Part shown: positions 22,118 through 30,860 of the stretch, piece by piece
Position numbering within the stretch: the stretch's first letter is position 1
Layout: the number at the start of each line of letters is the position of its first letter
Source of the DNA: Bacillota bacterium
GTDB lineage: Bacteria > Bacillota > Sulfobacillia > JABLXB01
Reading direction: 5' to 3'
DNA length: 64,000 nucleotides
Assembly: GCA_013178305.1 (NCBI GenBank)
Contig: JABLXB010000001.1
Location: 140,203 to 204,202 of the forward strand
Program-made: the position numbers and the translations under genes
Notes under the pieces: generated by a model
The model's database searches: none
What the model saw: only the letters and a program-made list of their open reading frames with translations
Told to the model about the DNA's origin: nothing

Positions 22118-22387
22118 TTGGAGCGGATGGTGAGGAAACAACTATACATCACCTCGGAACACGAGTCGAAGCTGAAGTCAAAGTCGAGCGAGACCGGGGT
22201 GAGTGAGGGAGAAATCGTCAGGGAGGCACTGTCGAGATACCTGGACTCCTCCATTCCCCGGAAGCAAGGGCTCTCCAACTGGGAAGACGAGATGGCCTTC
22301 ATCAAGTCACTTCAAGCGAAGGGCCCAGTTCCCGGAGGCCGCACCTGGAAGAGGGAGGAACTCTATGACAGGCCCCGCACTGATTGA
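22118..22387 (+). CDS. vapB: ribbon-helix-helix (CopG-like) antitoxin of a VapBC pair
   Basis: The segment LYITSEHESKLKSKSSETGVSEGEIVREALSRYL fits an RHH fold. TTG 22118 lies after a GGAGGTG RBS. The ORF overlaps the PIN gene start by 23 nt. Confidence 0.55.
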   Translation: MERMVRKQLYITSEHESKLKSKSSETGVSEGEIVREALSRYLDSSIPRKQGLSNWEDEMAFIKSLQAKGPVPGGRTWKREELYDRPRTD

Positions 22388-22790
22388 CTCAAACATCCTG
22401 GTATACGCGTACGACCGATCGGAGATGGAGAGGAGCCTCGTGGCGAGTGACGTGATTAACAACCTCGCCCGGACCGGCTTGTTGATACTCAGTTCGCAGG
22501 TTCTTGCCGAGTTCTTCGTGGCGGCCACACGGCGTATTCGTCACCCGCTCACGGCGTCCGAGGCTACCCGGTCTGTCCTGCGCTACGCGGCCGACTTCCC
22601 CGTCGTAGCCATCACCGGGCCAATTGTGCGCGAGGCCCTTAGAGGAGTGGCGTCTTATGGTCTTAGCTACTGGGACGCTCAGGTGTGGGCCACGGCCCGG
22701 CTCAACCAGATTGAAACCATTGTTACGGAAGATGTGCCGTCGCAGGACGAGATCGAGGGGGTCAGGTATGAGAATCCATTCGAGCATTGA
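22365..22790 (+). CDS. vapC: PIN-domain toxin
   Basis: MTGPALIDSNILVYAYD ... TEDVPSQDE carries the characteristic PIN acidic residues. ATG 22365 has a GAGGGAGG RBS. Confidence 0.65.
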   Translation: MTGPALIDSNILVYAYDRSEMERSLVASDVINNLARTGLLILSSQVLAEFFVAATRRIRHPLTASEATRSVLRYAADFPVVAITGPIVREALRGVASYGLSYWDAQVWATARLNQIETIVTEDVPSQDEIEGVRYENPFEH

Positions 22791-22893
22791 CGACGGCCGG
22801 CGACCTCAGTGGCACGAAAAGAAGAGGGCGGCTCGGCTATCCCGCCCCCTCCTGGACCATGAGCCCCGCTTCAGTTTCCGGTGGACGAACCCC

Positions 22894-23718
22894 CTAGGTT
22901 GTACCTGATCCACTTGGCGCCTGAGCCGGAGGTTCCTCCTGGTCCTGCGCGGGGTCATCAGGGTACTCCTCGAGCGGCTGGTCCCCCACTACCACAGTAC
23001 CCGAGTCATTGTCGAAATCGACTTCGCAGCCGAGCGCCTGAGCGATGAACCTGAGGGGGATGACCGTCCTGCCGTTGATCGACTTCGGGGGGACGTCCAG
23101 CTCGACCGGCTGCTCATTCACCAGCGCGGTCCTCGTTTCGAGCTGCAACCTGACTACCGTGTCACCCTTGGAGATGACTACCGTGCGGGTCTCGGCCTGC
23201 CACTCGACCGTCGCGCCCAGCGCTTCGACGAGGGCACGGACGGGGACCAGCGTCCTGCCGTCCTTGATGACGGGCGGCACGTCGAACGAGGGCTTCTTCC
23301 CGTTGACGAACACTTTGAGCGACCGGTCACCTTTCTGCGTGTAGACCCTGTACATGTTCGTATACAGGTTACGGTTCCGCGGATCGATCTCGATCGCCTT
23401 TTGCAGCGCCTCGAGGGTTTGGGCGGTATCCCCGGCGTCCTCGTGCATCCGGGCAAGTTCTTTCAGCGCGTGAACGCTGTCCGGGTGCTCGGAGAGGTAC
23501 TTCTTTAGCCCCTCCAGGGCTGCGGCGCGGTTCACGGCCGCTTTGATCATCTCCTTCACCTGAGCACGATCCCTTGCCTTTTCCCGGTCCCTCTCCTGCG
23601 TCCTGTCCTGCTCCGCATCGGAGGAGTTGGTCTGCGGGGCCGCAGCTGCAGCCGACCCCGCAACCAACACGGTGACGAGTATCACCGCCAGCACCGCAAA
23701 GCCAGTCGTCCTCTTCAT
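22894..23718 (-). CDS. secreted protein with signal peptide, TPR-like helical region and a C-terminal copper-amine-oxidase N-terminal-like (stalk) domain; paralog A
   Basis: Start at MKRTTGFAVLAVILV (GAGGAGG RBS). The C-terminus SLKVFVNGKKPSFDVPPVIKDGRTLVPVRALVEALGATVEWQ is about 80% identical to the 24622..25681 product. Confidence 0.7.
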   Translation of the reverse strand: MKRTTGFAVLAVILVTVLVAGSAAAAAPQTNSSDAEQDRTQERDREKARDRAQVKEMIKAAVNRAAALEGLKKYLSEHPDSVHALKELARMHEDAGDTAQTLEALQKAIEIDPRNRNLYTNMYRVYTQKGDRSLKVFVNGKKPSFDVPPVIKDGRTLVPVRALVEALGATVEWQAETRTVVISKGDTVVRLQLETRTALVNEQPVELDVPPKSINGRTVIPLRFIAQALGCEVDFDNDSGTVVVGDQPLEEYPDDPAQDQEEPPAQAPSGSGTT

Positions 23719-23761
23719 AGTCCCATACCTCCTCGTTCTTGATCCCGGCGGTCTCACTCAT

Positions 23762-23794
23762 CTCATACGCGGAACCGATGATATTTTGGGGGGT
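23762..23794 (-). promoter_or_regulatory. SigI-type promoter (-35 ACCCCCC, 18-nt spacer, -10 CGTATGA) for paralog A
   Basis: The minus strand reads TACCCCCCAAAATATCATCGGTTCCGCGTATGAG, matching the SigI consensus of a poly-C -35 with a CGWA -10. Confidence 0.5.
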
Positions 23795-23827
23795 ACCCAC
23801 CGAAGCGCGCGGGCCCCATCGTATTGA
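23795..23827 (+). promoter_or_regulatory. SigI-type promoter (-35 ACCCACC, 18-nt spacer, -10 CGTATTGA) for sigI, back-to-back with the previous element
   Basis: ACCCACC GAAGCGCGCGGGCCCCAT CGTATTGA lies immediately upstream of the sigI RBS (GTGAGGGG). The leader would be very short. Confidence 0.35.
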
Positions 23828-23837
23828 TAGGTGAGGG

Positions 23838-24512
23838 GTGGGTGTGGAAGCTGGCCTGGGCACCGACATCTCGAGAATAAAGGAAGACAGGCGCCTGCGG
23901 GACTCCTTCCTGGAATCCCACCGGGAGTTCGTAAGGAGATACGCGTCGTTTGTGTCGCATCGCCCGTTAAATTGGGAGAACGATGACGAACTCAGCGTGG
24001 GCCTGATCGCCCTGAACGACGCGATAGACTCGTACGACCCGCGCGCCGGAGTGGGTTTCCTGAGCTACGCGAAGGTGCTCATACGTCGGCGCCTGATCGA
24101 CCAGTTCAGGAAATCGGCCGCGCTGGACGTCGAAGGGCCGCTGGAAGACGACATGCGGGTTGCCGCCCGGACCGCCCCGGATGATGAGGAAAGACTCGAG
24201 CGGGCGTACGAGATGTCGTGTTTCGAGCAGCGCATGGCGGAGTTCGGGATAACCCTGAACGATCTTGTAAGAAACTCTCCCAGTCACCGGCCGACCCGAC
24301 AGACGCTGATGCAGGTAGCGCTGGCGGCCTACAGGTGTCCGGAAATCGTGCAGCGACTGCGCACAACAGGGCAACTTCCACTGAAGGAGATCCAGATGAT
24401 AACGGGTTGCAGCCGGAAGGTGCTCGAAACCTGGCGCAAGTATCTAATCTCTCTCATCGTCATCCTCACCGAAGACGAGCTCGAAGGCACACGGGAGTTC
24501 ATATTTGGGTAG
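23838..24512 (+). CDS. sigI: RNA polymerase sigma factor SigI
   Basis: LIALNDAIDSYDPRAGVGFLSYAKVLIRRRLIDQFRK aligns with B. subtilis SigI region 2, and the length is right. Start is GTG 23838 or GTG 23844. Confidence 0.8.
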   Translation: MGVEAGLGTDISRIKEDRRLRDSFLESHREFVRRYASFVSHRPLNWENDDELSVGLIALNDAIDSYDPRAGVGFLSYAKVLIRRRLIDQFRKSAALDVEGPLEDDMRVAARTAPDDEERLERAYEMSCFEQRMAEFGITLNDLVRNSPSHRPTRQTLMQVALAAYRCPEIVQRLRTTGQLPLKEIQMITGCSRKVLETWRKYLISLIVILTEDELEGTREFIFG

Positions 24513-24621
24513 CCGTCGCAGGCGCAGGTGGGTCGTTCTGAAACCGCCAAAGCCCGGGCGTGCATGAAGAGGGCGGCGTCTTCACAGCCGCCGCCCTCTT
24601 CATGTTGCCCCCAATTCTGCG

Positions 24622-25681
24622 CTACTGCCCTTCGCCAACCATGACCATCCCTGACGCCCCGTCATAACTGATTTGATACTTCAGCGCCTCTCCAACGAAC
24701 CTCAGCGGGACTACAGTCCGGCCGTTCAACGACTCGGCTGGTACGTCCAGTTCCAGAGTCTTCCCGTTCACAAGGGCCGTCCTGGACTCCAGTTGCAGCC
24801 GGATCACCGTGTCACCTTTCGATATGATTACCTCGCGGGTCTGCGCCTGCCACTCCACGGTCGCCCCCAGCGCCTCGCTGACTGCCCTCACCGGGACAAG
24901 CGTCCTACCATCCTTGATGACGGGCGGCTGGTCGAAAGCCGGCCTCTTCCCGTTCACGAACACTTTCAGGGATTTCTCGCCCATCTTCGCATACAACCTT
25001 TGCATGTTCCTGTACAGGTTGTGGTTCTTAGGTTCAAAGGCAACCGCCTTCTCCAGAGCCTCTACTGCCTCGTCATCGTCCCCGTTTTCCTCATGGAGTG
25101 TGGCCAGGGCCTTCAGCGCCTCTTCGCTGTCCGCGTGCTCCTTGAGGTACGCCCGCAGCTGTTCCATCGCAGCCAGTCGATTGGCTACTGCGGTTTTAAG
25201 CATTCCCTCCACTTGCGCCTGCTCTTGTTCCTCTTCCTTTCCCTCCTTCAGATCCTCCAGCAGTTCCTTGGCTTCCTCCAGGCCGGGGTTCTCCTTTGCA
25301 TACTTCTCGGCATCTGCAATGGCCTCATCCAGATTGCCCGCCTTCGCCAGGGCCTCGATCGCCCTCAACCGTTCGCGGACGTTCTCCTGGAGCGTGGCCC
25401 ATTCCTTCTCGCGCTCACGCGCCTTTTCCGCTGCTTCCTCAGCTTCCTCGTCGACCTCACCGTCGTCCTCATCATGGGCGGCACCGTCGTCCTCATCATG
25501 GGCGGCATCGTCGTCCTCATCATGGGCGGCATCGTCGTCCTCATCATGGGCGGCATCGTCGTCCTCATCATGGGCGGCCTGAGGTTTGCCCAGCGCCTCC
25601 GCCGAGCATAACCCGTACGATCCAGCCATCGACGCCAGCAAGAGCACGCCTACGAGCACAAGTACAATCGCCTTCTTCATT
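24622..25681 (-). CDS. secreted protein with signal peptide, acidic His-containing tandem repeats, TPR-like region and a C-terminal copper-amine-oxidase N-terminal-like domain; paralog B
   Basis: Start at MKKAIVLVLVGVLLLASMAGSYG (perfect AAGGAGG RBS). Contains (AAHDEDDD)x5 and a C-terminus paralogous to 22894..23718. Confidence 0.7.
25461..25578. repeat. 24-bp tandem repeat, about 4.9 copies (CGTCGTCCTCATCATGGGCGGCAY), inside the paralog B gene
   Basis: Read directly. It encodes AAHDEDDD repeats on the minus strand. Confidence 0.85.
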
Positions 25682-25785
25682 TTCGTTGCCTCCTTGTGAA
25701 GACTGACTACGCCTTCCTGCCAGAAACCGAGATGCTTGAGCCATTCCGCCAGCCGGCTGAAATCGCTCACCGGTCTTTTGATAAA

Positions 25786-25818
25786 TAAATACGGATTGTA
25801 GGCGTTGAATTGGGGGGT
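25786..25818 (-). promoter_or_regulatory. SigI-type promoter (-35 ACCCCCC, 18-nt spacer, -10 CGTATTTA) for paralog B
   Basis: The minus strand reads ACCCCCCAATTCAACGCCTACAATCCGTATTTA, about 100 nt upstream of the start codon. Confidence 0.5.
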
Positions 25819-25851
25819 ACCCACCAATACGTTGCGGTCCCTTCGTATTAG
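25819..25851 (+). promoter_or_regulatory. SigI-type promoter (-35 ACCCACC, 18-nt spacer, -10 CGTATTAG) for rsgI
   Basis: ACCCACC AATACGTTGCGGTCCCTT CGTATTAG, followed by a GTGAGGGGG RBS and GTG 25868. Confidence 0.35.
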
Positions 25852-25867
25852 GAAGTGAGGGGGCAGC

Positions 25868-27175
25868 GTGTCTACGAGGCGCTGGACTGAAGAGGTGGCA
25901 GCGGTGCGCTACGACGACATTGGACCGGGTAAAGGGCTGGTCATCAAGGTTCAGGGTAGCGAGTATTACGTTGTGTCCAGGGATTGCCGCTACTTGCGAC
26001 TCAGAGTCCGTGGCGTCGCACCGCGTCCCGGTGACATCGTCTGGCTACCTGCGACTTATCCGTCCCTGGTTCGCATCGCCATCGCAGCCTCCGTCCTACT
26101 GGTGATTGCTCTGGGAACTGCGGCGGTTGCGCTTCAGCGACAACCTGTTGCCTATATCGCTCTCGACATTAACCCAAGCGTCGAGCTAGGGCTCAACCGC
26201 TGGGAGAGGGTTGTGACCACCCGGGCGTTTAACCACGAGGGTTCGCTGCTTCTCAACCAGGTCTCGCTCAATGGGACGGGCATGATCAGCCGTCCGGCAG
26301 GGGAAGCGCTTGCCTCCATCGTTGAAGCCGCTATTGAGCACGGGTTCCTGTCACGTGAAGAAGACAACGTTATTCAAGTCGCGCTGCTGGCCCGGGAACG
26401 CCATTCACAGGCAATGGAGGAAAGTCTGCGAGAGCAGGTAGCGACAGTCTTGGAAAAGCGCGACGTGTCAGCGTATCTCAAGGTAAGAAGGGCCAGCCTT
26501 GAAACGCGAGATGCGGCCCGGAAGGAGAATCTCACGGTGAACGCCCACCTGTTGAAGAAGGAGGTCCAGGCTCAAGGTCTGGGCTCCACCGTGGCGGACT
26601 GGAGCAGACCACCTAAGGAGATTATTCGGAAAGTGGGAACCGGGAGGCTCTTTGATGCTAACGAATTCATAGGACATCACAGGAGCCGTGAGGAGACCAC
26701 AGGTGGTGCAGGGACTCCTCCGGTGTCTCCCGCGAACAGCGTCGGGGAGCCGGGCGCCACCACGGAGCCGATTCACGGTCGCGATCGCGCCGGGAAGAAC
26801 GACCCGACGGTCCCGCGACGTTCGCCCAAGAGGCCCAGCGGCAGCAGCGGCACGGTCAGGACCGGGGTGAAGCCCGGCTCTCAACCTGAGGCGGGCGACG
26901 CCAATCGTAGCCCCGCCGCTGGCAATACCGATTCGGGGACAGGGACACCCGTAGCGCCATCAACGCCAGCGCCGACTCCGCACGCGCCAGAGCAGCTGCC
27001 TCCGGGGCAACCTCCAGCGGGACAGTCTCCGGCAGGGCCACAACAGGAAGACGGCAAAAGCACGAACCCGGAGGCCCCGTCCTGGGAATACGACGAGAAC
27101 GAGGAAGAAGAACCGCACGAGGATGAGGATAAGGATGACAGCCCGTCACGAAGAGGGAAACCGGGCGGCAATTGA
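25868..27175 (+). CDS. rsgI: anti-sigma-I factor RsgI (N-terminal RsgI_N domain, single TM, extracytoplasmic domain, then a long Pro/Gly/Ser/Thr-rich tail)
   Basis: N-terminus YDDIGPGKGLVIKVQGSEYYVVSRDCRYLRLRVRGVAPRPGDIVWL matches RsgI_N. The TM helix is LVRIAIAASVLLVIALGTAAVAL. The region after the TM helix begins YIALDINPSVELGLN. Confidence 0.75.
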   Translation: MSTRRWTEEVAAVRYDDIGPGKGLVIKVQGSEYYVVSRDCRYLRLRVRGVAPRPGDIVWLPATYPSLVRIAIAASVLLVIALGTAAVALQRQPVAYIALDINPSVELGLNRWERVVTTRAFNHEGSLLLNQVSLNGTGMISRPAGEALASIVEAAIEHGFLSREEDNVIQVALLARERHSQAMEESLREQVATVLEKRDVSAYLKVRRASLETRDAARKENLTVNAHLLKKEVQAQGLGSTVADWSRPPKEIIRKVGTGRLFDANEFIGHHRSREETTGGAGTPPVSPANSVGEPGATTEPIHGRDRAGKNDPTVPRRSPKRPSGSSGTVRTGVKPGSQPEAGDANRSPAAGNTDSGTGTPVAPSTPAPTPHAPEQLPPGQPPAGQSPAGPQQEDGKSTNPEAPSWEYDENEEEEPHEDEDKDDSPSRRGKPGGN

Positions 27176-27225: not shown

Positions 27226-27777
27226 CTACGCCATCGTGCGTGCCTCCCGGCCGGCGAATTCATATCCGGCGTCAAGCGCCTTCCTGTTCATCTCCAGCGC
27301 GCGCTCATTCGGCGAGTTCTCCTCGAGCGCCTTATAGAGCGCCCCCCTGTCGACCACGGACGTGAGCGCCGCCGCGACACCAACCATGACGACGTTGGCG
27401 ACCCGCGGGTCGCCGAGCGACGCTGCGATGTCATTGACCGGCACGCGAACGACCTTGATGTCCTCGCGGTCGACGGCCTTGCCCACCAGGGACGAGTTGA
27501 CCAGCAGGTAGCCGCCTGGAACGACTGCCCCCACGAACTTATCCAGCGACGGGGCGTTCATCACGACCGCCAGGTTGGGCCGGTTCACGATCGGCGAGCC
27601 TATCCCGGACGTCGACACCACGACCGAGCAATTGGCCGTGCCGCCCCGCATCTCGGGTCCGTAGGATGGGAGCCAGGTGGATTCCTTGCCCTCGAGCATG
27701 CCCGCGTAGGCCATGATCTTGCCCATGAACATCACGCCCTGCCCGCCGAATCCCGCGAAAACGAATTTCTCAAGCAC
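27226..27777 (-). CDS. korC: 2-oxoacid:ferredoxin oxidoreductase gamma subunit
   Basis: 183 aa beginning MLEKFVFAGFGGQGVMFMGKIMAY, the typical POR/KOR gamma N-terminus. Confidence 0.85.
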   Translation of the reverse strand: MLEKFVFAGFGGQGVMFMGKIMAYAGMLEGKESTWLPSYGPEMRGGTANCSVVVSTSGIGSPIVNRPNLAVVMNAPSLDKFVGAVVPGGYLLVNSSLVGKAVDREDIKVVRVPVNDIAASLGDPRVANVVMVGVAAALTSVVDRGALYKALEENSPNERALEMNRKALDAGYEFAGREARTMA

Positions 27778-28534
27778 TGGCGACCGCCTCCTCCGGCGTC
27801 TTCAGTTCGCCCATGGTGTAAAGAGGAAGCATGTTATCCTGCAGCCACTTGACGGCGTCCAGCGGACCCATGCCCCAGTTCGTCGGGCACGGCGACAGTA
27901 CGCTCACAAACGCGAAGCCCTGCCTCTTCATCTGCACCTCGAACGCCTTCTTGATCGCCTTCTTGGCCTGGATGATGTTCTTCGGGGTGTCCACGGAAAC
28001 CGACGCGACGTACGCCGCACCCTTGAGCGTCGCCAGGACCTGAGGCATGTCGATGGGGAACCCCGCGCTCGACACGTCGCGGCCGTACGGGGACGTGGTC
28101 GTTTTCTGGCCGGGCAATGTGGTTGGAGCCATCTGTCCGCCGGTCATCCCGTAAATGGCGTTGTTGACGAAGATGACGGTGATCTTCTCGCCGCGCGCGG
28201 CCGCATGCATGACCTCAGCGATGCCGATCGCGGCCAGGTCCCCGTCACCCTGGTAGGTGAACACGACGCGGTCCGGCAACGCCCGCTTGACTCCGGTCGC
28301 CACCGCGCATGCGCGGCCGTGCGCCGCGCTCTGCATGTCGCAGTTCATGTAGCTGCTTATCAGCACCGCGCAGCCCACCGGGGCCACGCCGATGGTGTCG
28401 CCCAGCACACCAAGTTCCTCGAGGCTTTCCGCAACGAGGCGGTGGATCACGCCGTGCCCGCAGCCCGGGCAGTAGTGGAACGGGACGCCGGTAAGCCCCT
28501 TTGTCCGAGAGAATACCTGCTTCTCAGACATCAC
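27770..28534 (-). CDS. korB: 2-oxoacid:ferredoxin oxidoreductase beta subunit (TPP-binding)
   Basis: Contains HYCPGCGHG and GDGDLAAIG motifs. Confidence 0.85.
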   Translation of the reverse strand: MMSEKQVFSRTKGLTGVPFHYCPGCGHGVIHRLVAESLEELGVLGDTIGVAPVGCAVLISSYMNCDMQSAAHGRACAVATGVKRALPDRVVFTYQGDGDLAAIGIAEVMHAAARGEKITVIFVNNAIYGMTGGQMAPTTLPGQKTTTSPYGRDVSSAGFPIDMPQVLATLKGAAYVASVSVDTPKNIIQAKKAIKKAFEVQMKRQGFAFVSVLSPCPTNWGMGPLDAVKWLQDNMLPLYTMGELKTPEEAVASA

Positions 28535-29628
28535 GCCGTCACCCCCTGCGCCTTCTTCGCCGGTATCTCGTCGAGCAGCGCAACTACCCTCTCAGCCACG
28601 TCCTCGGGGGACGGGGTGAACCCGCCTACCCGCCCGAAGAAGCGTACCGGTAGTCGCCCGTTGACCGCGAGCCTGACGTCCTCGACCATTTGCCCCATGC
28701 TGAGTTCCACCGCGAGGACCCCCCTCACGCTCGTGGGCAGTGATTGGAATGCCTTGCCGGGGAACGGCCACAACGTGATGGGCCTCAGCAGCCCCACCTT
28801 GAGCCCTGCGGCTCTCAGCTGCATTACCGCTTCGCGGCATATCCTGGCCGACGTGCCGAACGCCACCACCAGGGCCTCCGCGTCTTCAATCTGGAAGGTA
28901 TCCCAGCGCTGCTCTTCGGCCGTTATCTTCTCGTACTTCGCCTGCTCTCGCAGGCATATCGGCTCGAGCAGCTCTGGAGTAAGGCCCCAGCACTGCACGA
29001 TGTTCCGCTTCGCACCCGGACCACGCCTGCCGGTCCCGGTTGTCGCCCAGGGCTTTTCTGTCCTCACAGGTGAGGGCTCCTTGAAAACCACTCGCTCCAT
29101 CGTCTGGCCGATGATCCCGTCGCCCAGCAGTATTACGGGGAGCCGCCACCTGTCGGCGAGGTCAAACGCCTCCATCATGAGGTCGGCCGCCTCCTGAACC
29201 GATGCGGGGCCGAGCACTATGGGATGGTAATCCCCGTGGCCGCCGCCCTTCGTCGCCTGGAAGTAATCACCCTGGCTGGGGCCGAGTCCCCCGAGACCCG
29301 GGCCGGCGCGCTGGATGTTGACGACGACGCAGGGGAGTTCAGCCCCCGTGATATACGACAGCCCTTCCTGCTTGAGGCTTATCCCGGGGCCCGACGACGC
29401 GGTCATCACGCGGGCTCCGGACCCTGCCGCGCCGTAGACCATGTTGATGGCCGCGACTTCGCTCTCAGCCTGCAGGAACGTCCCCCCGACCTCAGGCATG
29501 CGCCGCGCGAGGTACTCGGCCAGCTCGCTCGACGGCGTAATGGGATACCCGAAGAACAGCCTGCACCCGGCCCTGATGGCAGCCTCGGCTATGGCCTCGT
29601 TGCCCTTCATGAAATACTGGTTTTCCAC
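28531..29628 (-). CDS. korA: 2-oxoacid:ferredoxin oxidoreductase alpha subunit
   Basis: 365 aa beginning MENQYFMKGNEAIAEAAIRAGCRLFFGYPITPSSE. Confidence 0.85.
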   Translation of the reverse strand: MENQYFMKGNEAIAEAAIRAGCRLFFGYPITPSSELAEYLARRMPEVGGTFLQAESEVAAINMVYGAAGSGARVMTASSGPGISLKQEGLSYITGAELPCVVVNIQRAGPGLGGLGPSQGDYFQATKGGGHGDYHPIVLGPASVQEAADLMMEAFDLADRWRLPVILLGDGIIGQTMERVVFKEPSPVRTEKPWATTGTGRRGPGAKRNIVQCWGLTPELLEPICLREQAKYEKITAEEQRWDTFQIEDAEALVVAFGTSARICREAVMQLRAAGLKVGLLRPITLWPFPGKAFQSLPTSVRGVLAVELSMGQMVEDVRLAVNGRLPVRFFGRVGGFTPSPEDVAERVVALLDEIPAKKAQGVTA

Positions 29629-29655
29629 AGCCTATCCTCCTTAACGCCGGCGGCG

Positions 29656-29883
29656 CTAGCGCCAGACCGATATCGCGACGTCGGGGCATACGAGCGCGCA
29701 CATGGCGCAACCCGTGCACTTATCCGGTTCCGCTACGGCCGCAGGGTAGTATCCCTTGCCGTTCGCGGCACGCGACTTGCCCAGGCACTTCCTGGGGCAA
29801 GCGACAACGCACAACTCGCATCCCTTACACGTCTCTACTGCAATCTCAACCCTGGCCAAGAAAGCTCCTCCTTCCTGCTCCAC
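29656..29883 (-). CDS. korD: 4Fe-4S ferredoxin (delta subunit of the oxidoreductase)
   Basis: 75 aa with two CxxCxxCxxxCP clusters ([12 protein letters not shown] and [12 protein letters not shown]). Confidence 0.8.
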
Positions 29884-29894
29884 CCCCCGCGGGG

Positions 29895-30860
29895 CTACTG
29901 TTTACTTCCGGACGAGAGGATGACGGCCAGCGCGAGCGACGCGGCCTTGTTCTCGGGCGTGTCCGCCCTCGAGTTCATCACGACCGGCTTCCGCGCCCCC
30001 ACGACGATGCCCGCCATGATCGCGCGGCCGAAATAAAGCATGCTCTTGCCGAGTATGTTCCCTGATTCAAGGTCCGGCGCGACCAGCACGTCCGCGCGCC
30101 CCGCCACCTCACCGGTGACGCCTTTCTGCGCGGCGGCCTCCGCGCTCACCGCAACGTCGAGGGCCAGCGGCCCATCCACGAAGGCCCCCTTGATCTGCCC
30201 CCTGTCCGCCATTTTGGCGATAGCCGCCGCATCCGTGGTCGCCTGCATCTCGGGGTTGACGACCTCGACCGCCGCGAGAATGGCAGCCCTGGGCTTCTGA
30301 TAGCCCAGACCCCTCGCCATGTCAATGGCGTTCTGCACGATCTCCACCTTCGTCTTGAGGTCGGGCGAAACGTTGATGCCCGCGTCGGTCACGAACACCA
30401 TCCGGTCGAACTCCGGCACGTCCATGGCTGCCACGTGGCTCAAGATCCGCCCCGTCCGAAGGCCTGTCTCGGGGTGAAGCACGGCTTTCATGAAGTCGGC
30501 GGTCTTGACCTGGCCCTTCATGAGGATGTGCGCCTTCCCGCTCGACACCAGCGAGGTCGCCATCTGGGCCGCCGCCGCGGGCGTCGGGGCATCCACGACC
30601 TCCATGCCGCGCAGGCTCAACCCGCCCTCGACAGCGAGATTTTCGATCTTCGCGACCTGCCCGAACAGTGTGGCTTCAACGCCGAACTCCTCGCGGCACA
30701 CCCTCACGGCGAGGATGGTGTCGTCATCCTCGGCACCGGCGACAGCGAGCCGCAGCGGCTCTCTGCTGAGGATCTCCCGGGCCTGCCTGGCGTACGACTC
30801 GAATCTCCTGAGGTTCAAACCCACGGACGTCCCCTCCCCATCAGCCTGACATACACTCAT
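29895..30860 (-). CDS. ptb: phosphate butyryl/acetyl-transferase (PTA_PTB family)
   Basis: About 310 aa with a typical Ptb C-terminus ([12 protein letters not shown]). A later in-frame GTG at about 30821 carries a GGGGAGGGG RBS and may be the true start. Confidence 0.75.

Follow-up and report, generated by a model that had tools for sequence, protein, structure and literature searches.

The window analysed here, a 64-kb stretch of a metagenome-assembled genome from an uncultured member of the Bacillota, contains genes for a SigI-family sigma factor and an anti-sigma-I factor. In general, sigI and rsgI are joined as one operon. At this locus they are 1.36 kb apart, with a gene on the opposite strand, parB, between them and its paralog, parA, diverging from sigI. 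All four genes, parA(-), sigI(+), parB(-) and rsgI(+), were confirmed in the order and on the strands described in an earlier note on this DNA. For parB, which the note had placed at 24622-25681, the end at 24622 is correct, while the start is at 25680, one base off. The features are as follows:

22820-22853, minus strand: terminator-like hairpin 3' of parA, GC-rich stem of 12 bp with UUUU after it (22816-22819)
22894-23718, minus strand: parA, secreted TPR and Cu_amine_oxidN1 (stalk) protein, 274 aa, NCBI HPY55_00830
23844-24512, plus strand: sigI, SigI-family sigma factor, 222 aa, alternative GTG start at 23838
24563-24604, no strand assigned: hairpin in the sigI/parB convergent gap, perfect GC-rich stem of ~17 bp, without U tract
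24622-25680, minus strand: parB, secreted TPR and stalk protein, 352 aa
25461-25578, minus strand: tandem repeat in the mature N-terminus of ParB, 24 nt x 4.9, (AAHDEDDD)n
25868-27175, plus strand: rsgI, anti-sigma-I factor, 435 aa, NCBI HPY55_00845, GTG start

SigI matched the Sigma70_r2 and NCBIfam SigI models (best E 8e-55; best NCBIfam score 185.9 bits, the SigI NCBIfam scores being below their curated cutoffs), and an independent assembly also has sigI called at 222 aa. Residues 10-219 align to SigI6 of C. thermocellum (PDB 8i24, E 2.8e-25). In this alignment, the minor-groove His-Arg and RRxxD..R residues of SigI6, whose roles at the -10 element have been described (PMC10575876), are kept, and the RRLID residues are retained. 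RsgI matched RsgI_M with 84.5 bits and RsgI_N with 18 bits, the latter below its cutoff. It consists of a cytoplasmic N-domain, a TM segment at ~66-90, a SEAL/RsgI_M domain (94-231) containing the Asn102-Pro103 autocleavage motif, and a tail (241-435) which is rich in Pro, Gly, Ser and Glu and disordered according to hydropathy and composition. Both DINPS and the TM segment with IAA are retained, and the DI-NPSVE stretch is in register with the SEAL domain of B. subtilis RsgI (PDB 8t9n, E 6.5e-6).

ParA and ParB both possess N-terminal hydrophobic signal-like segments and match PF07833 (E 1.3e-40 and 5.2e-38, respectively) as well as TPRs, in line with the secreted copper-amine-oxidase-N and TPR proteins of the earlier note. 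Its description of the stalk domains as near-identical was overstated, as these are 72% identical (81/112), and the proteins 64% identical over 191 aa; the DNA is 72% identical over 468 nt. In the AF2 model of ParA (pLDDT 89), a helix (33-60) is followed by TPR helices (64-129) and the stalk domain (135-245). In Foldseek, this model matched the D1 domain of E. coli amine oxidase and consensus TPRs, and the PF07833 domain matched the D1 domain only. ParB, like its orthologues in related genomes, also contains a long helical extension and, N-terminally, an acidic repeat. The acidic His-containing repeat noticed earlier was confirmed (24 nt x 4.9 copies, 98% matches, TRF score 229).

The hairpin in the convergent gap between sigI and parB is probably a bidirectional terminator. 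The fold of 24505-24630 has an energy of -70.4 kcal/mol (z = -5.7), and none of 200 shuffles was as stable; the hairpin was not flagged in a scan for T-run terminators. It has a 12-nt arm, GAAGAGGGCGGC, in common with the hairpin downstream of parA, which may tentatively be assigned as a terminator; here the local hairpin is clear and the z-score of the whole region is not significant.

Both divergent intergenic regions have a gap-free footprint in common, TACG-N19-GGGGGT/ACCCAC-N19-CGTA-N7-GTGAGGGG, in which the slash marks the point where two -35 hexamers abut, with a CGTA -10 element at 19 nt on either side. Since the Bacillales SigI consensus, ACCCCC--AA 15(N) CGAA----T (CGWA in clostridia; PMC4711584), fits, we infer two back-to-back SigI-type promoters in each region, one predicted to read towards parA or parB and the other towards sigI or rsgI. 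The earlier note had missed this bidirectional nature. With the transcription start sites (TSS) set by the C-14 G-13 W-12 A-11 numbering (PMC10575876), the predicted elements are:

23755-23794, minus strand: predicted parA promoter, -35 ACCCCC at 23789-23794, AA, 15-nt spacer, -10 CGTA at 23766-23769, TSS ~23755
23795-23834, plus strand: predicted sigI autoregulatory promoter, -35 ACCCAC at 23795-23800, -10 CGTA at 23820-23823
~23834, plus strand: sigI TSS predicted from sequence, inside the conserved GTGAGGGG
25779-25818, minus strand: predicted parB promoter, -35 ACCCCC at 25813-25818, -10 CGTA at 25790-25793, TSS ~25779, 99-nt leader
25819-25858, plus strand: predicted rsgI promoter, a duplicate of that of sigI, -35 ACCCAC at 25819-25824, -10 CGTA at 25844-25847
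~25858, plus strand: predicted rsgI TSS in GTGAGGGGG, with the GTG start 10 nt further on

The parA promoter is an exact consensus match (ACCCCC-CA-AA-N15-CGTA) and is invariant in a five-way alignment with relatives. This alignment is gap-free, and only TACG, GGG.GGTACCCACC.A, CGTA and GTGAG.GG are invariant in it. Upstream of both sigI and rsgI lies a common 53-nt block (75% identity, E 1e-5), which holds the SigI-type -35 and -10 elements at exact consensus spacing. Furthermore, ACCCMC-N19-CGTA occurs exactly four times in the window, always in these two regions, where 0.2 sites are expected and none of 100 shuffles reached four, a statistic biased by the pattern having been built from those very sites. 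ACCCAC/ACCCCC...CGWA was also found 5' of sigI in six more distant loci (L006, L008, L009, L011, L014 and L021). For the parB leader, folding gave no significant structure and Rfam no match. Two observations count against the promoter reading: the rightward -35 element is ACCCAC instead of ACCCCC with a poor A-tract (CGAA, CAAT), and the predicted sigI and rsgI leaders measure only ~10 nt. The A-tract is stressed in structural work on clostridial SigI factors.

In the related locus L003 (JBLNBR010000040) and in L004/L010, a single ParB-like gene diverges from an unsplit sigI-rsgI pair with overlapping genes (by 14 nt in L003); unsplit, overlapping pairs are also present in L021 and L027. In L002 (JANLGA010000111), a stalk gene again diverges from sigI, and rsgI is not visible because the contig ends inside sigI. 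The flanks are orthologous, with CopA on the left common to L002 and PTB on the right (70% identical) common to L003. ParB is nearest to the L003 and L002 proteins, and the tree places (ParB,(ParA,P0004)) as the sister group of (L003,L002). A split arrangement could not be shown in a second genome, the only closer relative (L015) being a 1.5-kb contig. The orthologous loci with the same flanks are unsplit and also have the bidirectional motif, and so the split is, on sequence comparison, a derived state that arose via duplication of the stalk gene and its promoter. The earlier proposal of a duplication or insertion bringing its own SigI promoter is thus supported by the unsplit orthologues, the paralog tree and the 53-nt block. 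The arrangement is an evolutionary variation on a known system and does not constitute a new kind. Before the split, a secreted-protein gene already diverged from sigI, which had escaped the earlier reader.

A SigI-type motif lies 5' of all eight stalk genes adjoining sigI or rsgI, in three clades and two arrangements (chance per region 0.001-0.12), and 5' of two of seven non-adjacent stalk homologues. Since all eight carry it, the adjoining stalk genes are probably members of the SigI regulon, which lends computational support to the earlier suggestion that parA and parB are direct targets. Against this counts that Clostridia have a great many stalk-domain proteins and that several close homologues are not located near sigI. 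In L012, PF07833 is fused to a glucosaminidase-like domain directly 3' of sigI-rsgI; elsewhere it is fused to LysM and Hydrolase_2, or to YkuD. The C. thermocellum cell-surface protein OlpC carries PF07833 (PMC3413522), and the B. subtilis SigI regulon consists of cell-wall genes (PMC9732909). From these domain contexts, ParA and ParB are probably cell-surface or cell-wall-associated proteins. In the literature searched, no link between the stalk domain and SigI/RsgI was found.

The gene arrangement is not an assembly artefact, as two independent Logan contigs reproduce it, one with parA, sigI and the 3' part of parB, and the other with the 5' part of parB, rsgI and POR. Both end within the 24-nt repeat of ParB, where their ends overlap, and its copy number is therefore uncertain. 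The metagenomic source of the window and the breaking of short-read contigs within parB are what would be expected of a misassembly produced by the two paralogous genes; with both junctions on independent contigs and paralog DNA too divergent for mis-joining at 72% identity, this is extremely improbable. It is also very unlikely that the split has uncoupled the pair functionally, so that rsgI or sigI is turning into an orphan or a pseudogene and the upstream block is a decaying remnant of the duplication. C. thermocellum has an "orphan" RsgI9 that lacks a neighbouring sigI (PMC12203970), and SigI and RsgI_N both score under the curated cutoffs. However, both reading frames are intact, RsgI with DINPS and its TM segment with IAA, SigI with the His-Arg and RRLID residues. 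In addition, the paralog coding DNA has drifted to 72% identity and the remaining intergenic DNA is no longer recognisable, yet the -35, -10 and start blocks still match exactly and in register, which indicates purifying selection instead of decay.

The palindrome GGGGGGTACCCACC might alternatively be the operator of a dimeric regulator, the four genes being read by the housekeeping or another sigma factor. Its near-perfect 12-14-bp core, kept in five regions, is typical of dimeric repressor sites, and the rightward half, ACCCAC, departs from ACCCCC. Nevertheless, we consider this quite unlikely: beyond the palindrome, CGTA never varies and sits at exactly N19 to either side, as in the published SigI geometry (PMC4711584), the distant loci have non-palindromic ACCCCC/ACCCAC...CGWA 5' of sigI and stalk genes, and no sigma-70-like -35/-10 pair was detected in either intergenic region. 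A further possibility, related to the ligand role raised in the earlier note, is that ParA and ParB are more than output and act on RsgI outside the cytoplasm, as its partners or ligands. They might, for instance, be anchored in the wall and modulate signalling by binding the RsgI ectodomain or its disordered tail, in which case the interleaved order would have been selected to keep a three-component sensor co-expressed. Stalk-domain proteins repeatedly occur beside sigI-rsgI (three clades, three arrangements), TPR modules are protein-binding scaffolds, and every RsgI adjoining a stalk gene has a low-complexity tail without a folded sensor domain. Such a role, which is compatible with regulon membership, is nonetheless unlikely, since close homologues (P0006-P0008, P0010 and P0019) are located away from any sigI and the disordered tail of B. 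subtilis RsgI senses alone, even when scrambled (PMC9732909).

The likely explanation is an envelope-stress SigI/RsgI module of the B. subtilis type, remodelled by duplication of a stalk gene and a bidirectional promoter, with four predicted SigI promoters. From an ancestral layout CopA ← stalk-protein gene ← / → sigI-rsgI / ← PTB, the secreted TPR-stalk gene and the bidirectional promoter region would have been duplicated, probably together with a sigI copy that was later lost, giving parA ← P → sigI and parB ← P' → rsgI. Removal of RsgI by regulated intramembrane proteolysis would free SigI to take RNA polymerase to the four promoters, whereby sigI expression would provide positive and rsgI expression negative feedback, with parA and parB as the output. 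Because the duplicated gene brought a copy of the sigI promoter, the four genes are probably still induced together. Autoregulation would survive the loss of the operon, since rsgI obtained this copy including the transcription-start and Shine-Dalgarno block, while the sigI-rsgI translational coupling present in relatives is lost.

In B. subtilis, SigI-RsgI forms a cell-wall homeostasis pathway with an autoregulated sigI-rsgI operon and the regulon lytE, mreBH and bcrC. The present system resembles it in the two-domain SigI, the predicted autoregulation, the promoter architecture (ACCCCC--AA-N15-CGWA) and the build of RsgI, in which a cytoplasmic N-domain is followed by a single TM segment and a SEAL/RsgI_M domain whose Asn-Pro motif is in register, and a low-complexity tail of Pro, Gly, Ser and charged residues takes the place of a folded sensor. 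In contrast, sigI and rsgI are here predicted to be transcribed separately, an antisense gene and a strong hairpin lying in the gap, the -10 element reads CGTA instead of CGAA, the promoters form back-to-back divergent pairs, the sequences are distant (E 6.5e-6 for the SEAL domain against 8t9n), and the adjacent predicted target is a secreted TPR-stalk protein. PF07833 is not known from B. subtilis 168.

The SigI1-8/RsgI1-9 systems of C. thermocellum include the nearest solved SigI structures (SigI6, 8i24, E 2.8e-25) and share the CGWA -10 element, with CGTA as in SigI3-type promoters, and the Asn-Pro autoproteolysis site. In contrast to these polysaccharide-sensing systems, the present RsgI lacks a folded sensing domain such as a CBM or GH, the spacing is Bacillales-like (19 nt from ACCCCC to CGWA) instead of AAA-N13-14-CGWA, and there is one SigI/RsgI pair, at least within the window, instead of a paralogue family. 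RsgI9 (PMC12203970) is a precedent for rsgI without adjacent sigI, although here both partners are present, one inserted gene apart. ParA and ParB resemble other secreted Firmicutes PF07833 proteins such as OlpC, and the confident model can be superposed on D1, the stalk domain of E. coli amine oxidase; they differ in the two-repeat TPR module, the acidic His-containing repeat of ParB and the lack of a cohesin or enzyme domain. The unsplit relatives (L003, L002 and L004/L010) have SigI proteins 47-60% identical to the present one and, as here, a ParB-like TPR-stalk gene diverging from sigI; in L002 and L003, the bidirectional motif is identical in kind and the CopA/PTB flanks are common. These relatives possess one stalk gene without the second promoter copy, the AAHDEDDD repeat or the VapBC located here between CopA and the stalk gene, and in L003 and L004/L010 sigI and rsgI overlap in one operon.

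The locus consists of four intact genes whose orientations alternate. Their order and directions are those stated in the earlier note, except that the gene calls place the start of parB at 25680, one base from the 25681 given there.

22894–23718, minus strand: parA (HPY55_00830), secreted TPR-stalk protein, identified by Pfam and hydropathy
23844–24512, plus strand: sigI, with an alternative GTG start at 23838, identified by Sigma70_r2 and NCBIfam SigI models
24622–25680, minus strand: parB, secreted TPR-stalk protein, identified by Pfam and hydropathy
25868–27175, plus strand: rsgI (HPY55_00845), identified by its RsgI_M/SEAL domain

The sigI stop and the rsgI start are separated by 1,355 nt, which hold the antisense gene of 352 codons and a strong hairpin. 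While an RsgI-family gene is expected to be adjacent to sigI and co-transcribed with it, rsgI does not occupy such a position here. The GC hairpin of ~17 bp (24563–24604) is situated between the convergent sigI and parB genes, and the fold of 24505–24630 gave a z of −5.7, with equally good folds in 0/200 shuffles. This hairpin makes read-through from sigI into rsgI unlikely. Two independent Logan contigs (SRR6186653) reproduce parA-sigI-parB(3′) and parB(5′)-rsgI-POR, respectively, and since both junctions are thereby recovered, the arrangement is real. The acidic His-containing repeat described earlier for ParB is present as a 24-nt unit (AAHDEDDD) in 4.9 copies with 98% identity (25461–25578), a copy number that is uncertain in the MAG assembly because both short-read contigs (the starts of L001 and L031) stop within the repeat. 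The copy number could also vary within the population. A chimaeric rsgI 5′ end retaining sigI codons was rejected, as inspection of the first 13 rsgI codons revealed no similarity to sigI.

ParA and ParB both start with a hydrophobic signal-like segment and carry the stalk domain PF07833 Cu_amine_oxidN1 (138.1 and 129.7 bits, E 1e-40 and 5e-38, respectively; cutoff 24.2). TPR_19 and TPR_14 scored above their cutoffs in ParA, and TPR_14 did so in ParB; at least two tandem TPR helix pairs are present, and matches to consensus-TPR PDB entries cover residues 67–132. The AF2 model of ParA (pLDDT 89 overall and >94 across the stalk domain) comprises a long helix, two TPR repeats (helices 64–77, 82–94, 98–111 and 116–129) and the stalk domain, which superposes on the D1 domain of E. 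coli amine oxidase (1oac/1spu) with an rmsd of 1.2 Å over 72 columns in Foldseek. Apart from the E. coli amine oxidase D1 domain and designed TPRs, this model had no Foldseek neighbours, and these two offer no functional lead. The two genes are clear paralogues (72% DNA identity over 468 nt), but the C-terminal domain is less similar than the "near-identical" of the earlier note: the proteins share 72% (81/112) in the stalk domain and 64% over 191 aa. The long N-terminal helical extension is ancestral and retained in ParB, which is closer to the proteins of two related contigs, L002 (JANLGA010000111) and L003 (JBLNBR010000040.1). ParA, the faster-evolving copy, is shortened.

SigI contains an N-terminal sigma-2-like domain (PF04542 Sigma70_r2, 36.3 bits; cutoff 24) and the SigI-specific C-terminal domain, not sigma-4, which matches the isolated C-domain of SigI1 (6ivu) at 4.5e-7. 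The alignment with C. thermocellum SigI6 (PDB 8i24, chain F; E 2.8e-25) spans the protein end to end, through residue 219. The RRRLID..R block, whose equivalent in SigI6 contacts C-14/G-13 of the −10 element, is conserved, and the minor-groove His and Arg of the C-terminal domain are kept (PKHRDSR in SigI6, PSHRPTR here). The top ten NCBIfam matches are all SigI models (best E 8e-55), and all ten scores fall under the curated cutoffs (best score 185.9 bits for NF006175, cutoff 244; 153.6 for TIGR02895, cutoff 185). On these profile scores, the protein is classed as a divergent SigI-family member and not as the equivalog of any named subfamily.

In RsgI, the model for the cytoplasmic anti-sigma domain RsgI_N (PF12791) gave a weak N-terminal match (residues 22–60) of 18 bits, below the cutoff of 25 (E 0.0026), and this region aligns to the RsgI proteins of relatives by tblastn. 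It is followed by one hydrophobic transmembrane segment (residues ~66–90) and a SEAL/RsgI_M domain (PF23750, 84.5 bits; cutoff 25.3; residues 94–231), with PDB matches to 8t9n, 8her, 8u9o and 8hdj. The sequence YIALDI-N102-P103-SVE is in register with the autocleavage site DI(GGG)NPSVE of B. subtilis RsgI (8t9n). The Tyr (−6), Asp (−2) and Ser (+2) residues described for the autocleavage motif of RsgI2 (PMC10328401) are all kept around the predicted Asn-Pro cleavage site. Residues 241–435 are rich in Pro (16%), Gly (13%), Glu (9%) and Ser (9%), hydrophobic or aromatic residues make up 10%, and no Pfam domain was matched in this region. This composition and the lack of a domain match suggest that the tail is of the disordered B. 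subtilis type and not a carbohydrate-binding sensor, the disorder being predicted from composition only; the RsgI of B. subtilis has a disordered tail and is of the wall-sensing type (PMC9732909). A homologue search with full-length RsgI was dominated by the low-complexity tail and returned only the protein itself and one fragment, contributing nothing on synteny.

Related loci were gathered by a SigI-anchored scan. On L003 (SigI 60% identical), a single ParB-like gene diverges from sigI, and rsgI lies directly downstream, overlapping sigI by 14 nt. In L004/L010 (SigI 47% identical), a single ParB-like gene likewise diverges from sigI, with rsgI immediately 3′. A ParB-like gene also diverges from sigI on L002 (SigI 60%), where the contig ends inside sigI and rsgI is outside the view. 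The visible sigI-rsgI pairs are unsplit and overlapping, unlike that of the window, the only locus in which the split was seen. The L002 and L003 loci are judged orthologous to the window locus because CopA stands beside the stalk gene in L002 and PTB (70% identical) is convergent after rsgI in L003. The L003 contig (104.5 kb) belongs to an "Ignavibacteriales bacterium" MAG; given its Bacillota-type stalk-sigI-rsgI-PTB locus, with SigI 60% and PTB 70% identical to those of the window, it is probably mis-binned or mislabelled.

A neighbour-joining tree of the conserved region placed (ParB,(ParA,P0004)) as sister to (L003,L002), P0004 being a ParA orthologue (80% identical) encoded on contig L015. 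This topology indicates a duplication after the divergence from L002/L003 and before that from the P0004 organism. L015 shows the same VapC-parA-sigI order as the window, and this 1.5-kb contig ends inside sigI, too short to reveal parB. A search for a ParB orthologue that might show the split in a second genome yielded none, the closest protein being that of the unsplit L003 (58%). The simplest history would be that [stalk gene-promoter-sigI] was duplicated in tandem and the second sigI was then lost; equivalently, a copy of [stalk gene-promoter] may have been inserted at the sigI/rsgI junction.

Comparison of the intergenic regions points to the same kind of event. The upstream regions of sigI and rsgI share a 53-nt block, TTGGGGGGTACCCACC...TCGTATT...GTGAGGGG, at 75% identity; the remaining intergenic DNA is unalignable. 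Together with the unsplit orthologous loci, this block supports the earlier proposal that a duplication or insertion carrying its own SigI promoter would have separated the sigma/anti-sigma pair. For Bacillales, the published SigI consensus reads ACCCCC--AA 15(N) CGAA----T, and CGWA is the form found in SigI promoters of clostridia (PMC4711584). Both intergenic regions carry two motifs each, one per strand, with exactly the spacing of the Bacillales consensus.

Predicted SigI-type promoters of the locus
23794–23766, minus strand: parA promoter, ACCCCC CA AA N15 CGTA
23795–23823, plus strand: sigI promoter, ACCCAC CG AA N15 CGTA ....T
25818–25790, minus strand: parB promoter, ACCCCC CA AT N15 CGTA ....T
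25819–25847, plus strand: rsgI promoter, ACCCAC CA AT N15 CGTA

The promoter 5′ of sigI (ACCCAC-CG-AA-N15-CGTA-TTGA-T, 23795–23828) is a predicted autoregulatory one. ACCCMC-N19-CGTA matched four times in 64 kb, in every case at these promoters, compared with an expectation of 0.2 and at least four matches in 0/100 shuffles, a statistic that is biased because the pattern was defined after the sites were seen. The −35 hexamers abut (GGGGGT|ACCCAC) at 23789–23800 and 25813–25824, forming a palindromic core. The same back-to-back motif is found in L002, L003 and L015; in a gap-free 5-way alignment, the only invariant positions are TACG, GGG.GGTACCCACC.A, CGTA and GTGAG.GG.

According to the structural numbering of the SigI −10 element (C-14 G-13 W-12 A-11; PMC10575876), transcription would start at about 23755, 23834, 25779 and 25858. 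The starts of sigI and rsgI deduced in this way occupy the same A within the conserved GTGAGGGG, with the GTG start codon 10 nt on, suggesting that the duplicated block includes the −35, the −10 and the transcription start as well as the Shine-Dalgarno sequence. Every predicted −10 in the window clade is CGTA, not CGAA. The base at W-12 helps to determine specificity in C. thermocellum, where SigI3 needs CGTA and SigI6 needs CGAA; the four promoters thus seem to be matched to a single SigI specificity class. Neither a sigma-70-like promoter nor a T-run terminator was detected by scanning the relevant intergenic regions. Across the whole window, Rfam and tRNA scans gave zero matches, so the 99-nt parB leader does not correspond to a known riboswitch or leader, and its fold was not significant. 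A one-mismatch scan for further regulon members yielded 20 matches compared with 12 expected, none of them convincing beyond the four sites.

Stalk-domain genes adjoin sigI-rsgI in three clades and in three arrangements:

Divergent, upstream of sigI: window parA, L002, L003, L004/L010, L015
Co-directional, downstream: L021 (from homologue P0013), L027 (from homologue P0029)
Between sigI and rsgI: window parB

A SigI-type motif is located 75–150 nt upstream of all sigI/rsgI-adjacent TPR-stalk genes (8/8; chance per region 0.001–0.12 in mononucleotide shuffles), but of only 2/7 non-adjacent homologues. It also precedes sigI in L006, L008, L009, L011, L014 and L021. The suggestion that the secreted proteins are direct SigI targets thus gains good comparative support, short of proof. 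The two non-adjacent cases are ACCCACTTAAAAC...CGAA at ~−152 in L025 and ACCCTCCCAAAAAC...CGAA at ~−95 in L029, one of which is from Ferviditalea candida; these stalk genes may be unlinked members of a SigI regulon.

Regarding the role of ParA and ParB, PF07833 is found fused to LysM and Hydrolase_2, to an L,D-transpeptidase and, on contig L012 (see below), to a probable glucosaminidase; the C. thermocellum cell-surface protein OlpC contains this domain too (PMC3413522). The SigI regulon of B. subtilis consists of cell-wall genes (PMC9732909), and the tails of all RsgI proteins found beside stalk genes are of low complexity, resembling in this the wall-sensing B. subtilis type. This evidence is indirect; on its basis, ParA and ParB are most likely envelope-associated outputs of an envelope-stress SigI. 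We consider it rather improbable that the TPR-stalk proteins are a hitherto unrecognised third component of disordered-tail SigI/RsgI modules in clostridia-like Bacillota, that is, wall- or surface-anchored partners or ligands that interact with the ectodomain or tail of RsgI and determine the mechanotransduction threshold. If this were true, the back-to-back promoter would serve specifically to induce sensor, sigma factor and partner together in stoichiometric amounts, and the split locus would be a natural experiment that has uncoupled the dosage of sigma from that of anti-sigma and tied each to its own partner paralogue. Our literature search found no paper connecting PF07833 proteins with SigI/RsgI.

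A further stalk-domain protein was found on L012, a low-GC metagenome contig (2210–6165), where sigI-rsgI is followed by a gene for a 704-aa secreted protein that has the stalk domain at its N-terminus and whose C-terminal region, by eye, looks like an N-acetylglucosaminidase. This locus ties PF07833, peptidoglycan hydrolysis and SigI together in another lineage. Its RsgI is short (301 aa), and a regex search found no DxNPS motif. A SigI-type promoter 5′ of the stalk-glucosaminidase gene was rejected, as the weak ACCGTC...CGAA seen by eye did not match the pattern.

The flanks of the locus differ between lineages as well. A VapBC-like pair (22118–22790, plus strand) lies between CopA and parA:

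22118–22387, plus strand: ribbon-helix-helix antitoxin, overlapping the toxin gene
22365–22790, plus strand: PIN-domain toxin (VapC), 81% identical to its L015 counterpart

Since CopA directly abuts the stalk gene in the orthologous L002, this module is regarded as a second lineage-specific insertion, common to the window and L015. On the right, a four-gene 2-oxoacid:ferredoxin oxidoreductase cluster (gamma, beta, alpha, delta; 27226–29883, minus strand) separates rsgI from PTB, whereas PTB directly follows rsgI in L003, indicating that this flank is rearranged too. The closest TPR-stalk homologues away from sigI (P0006–P0008; L016, L018, L020 and L024 loci) neighbour genes for a PAS-sigma54 activator, acetate/butyrate kinase and 2-oxoacid:ferredoxin oxidoreductase. 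The same families flank the window locus (27226–30860 and left of 19200), where genes for a sigma54 activator, acetate kinase, POR and PTB can be seen on the Logan contig L001. The stalk gene may therefore belong to a conserved neighbourhood in which sigI-rsgI is variably present.

SigI/RsgI serves as a model of how signals cross the Gram-positive envelope by mechanotransduction primed by autoproteolysis, and the PF07833 stalk is among the commonest uncharacterised extracellular domains in Firmicutes. To our knowledge, the targets of non-cellulolytic clostridial SigI systems are unknown; the secreted TPR-stalk protein is a conserved candidate regulon member for them, and a tie to an envelope-stress sigma factor would be the first functional handle on PF07833. 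The locus is also a clear case of predicted regulatory wiring outlasting genome rearrangement and offers a candidate compact bidirectional SigI promoter with abutting −35 elements. Its practical importance is modest.

As members of the SigI, RsgI, TPR and PF07833 families, the components are ordinary. In every characterised SigI/RsgI case known to us, both genes form one autoregulated operon, whereas here they are separate physically and, by prediction, transcriptionally. The "orphan" RsgI9 of C. thermocellum is known, but has no partner nearby (PMC12203970), while the window holds both genes. Also setting the locus apart from characterised systems are the predicted divergent SigI promoter, whose −35 elements abut back to back, and the recurrent association with TPR-stalk proteins; neither was found in the literature searched. 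Because the promoter was apparently duplicated along with the inserted gene, the predicted autoregulation that characterised systems achieve in a single operon would be preserved here despite the separation of sigI and rsgI.
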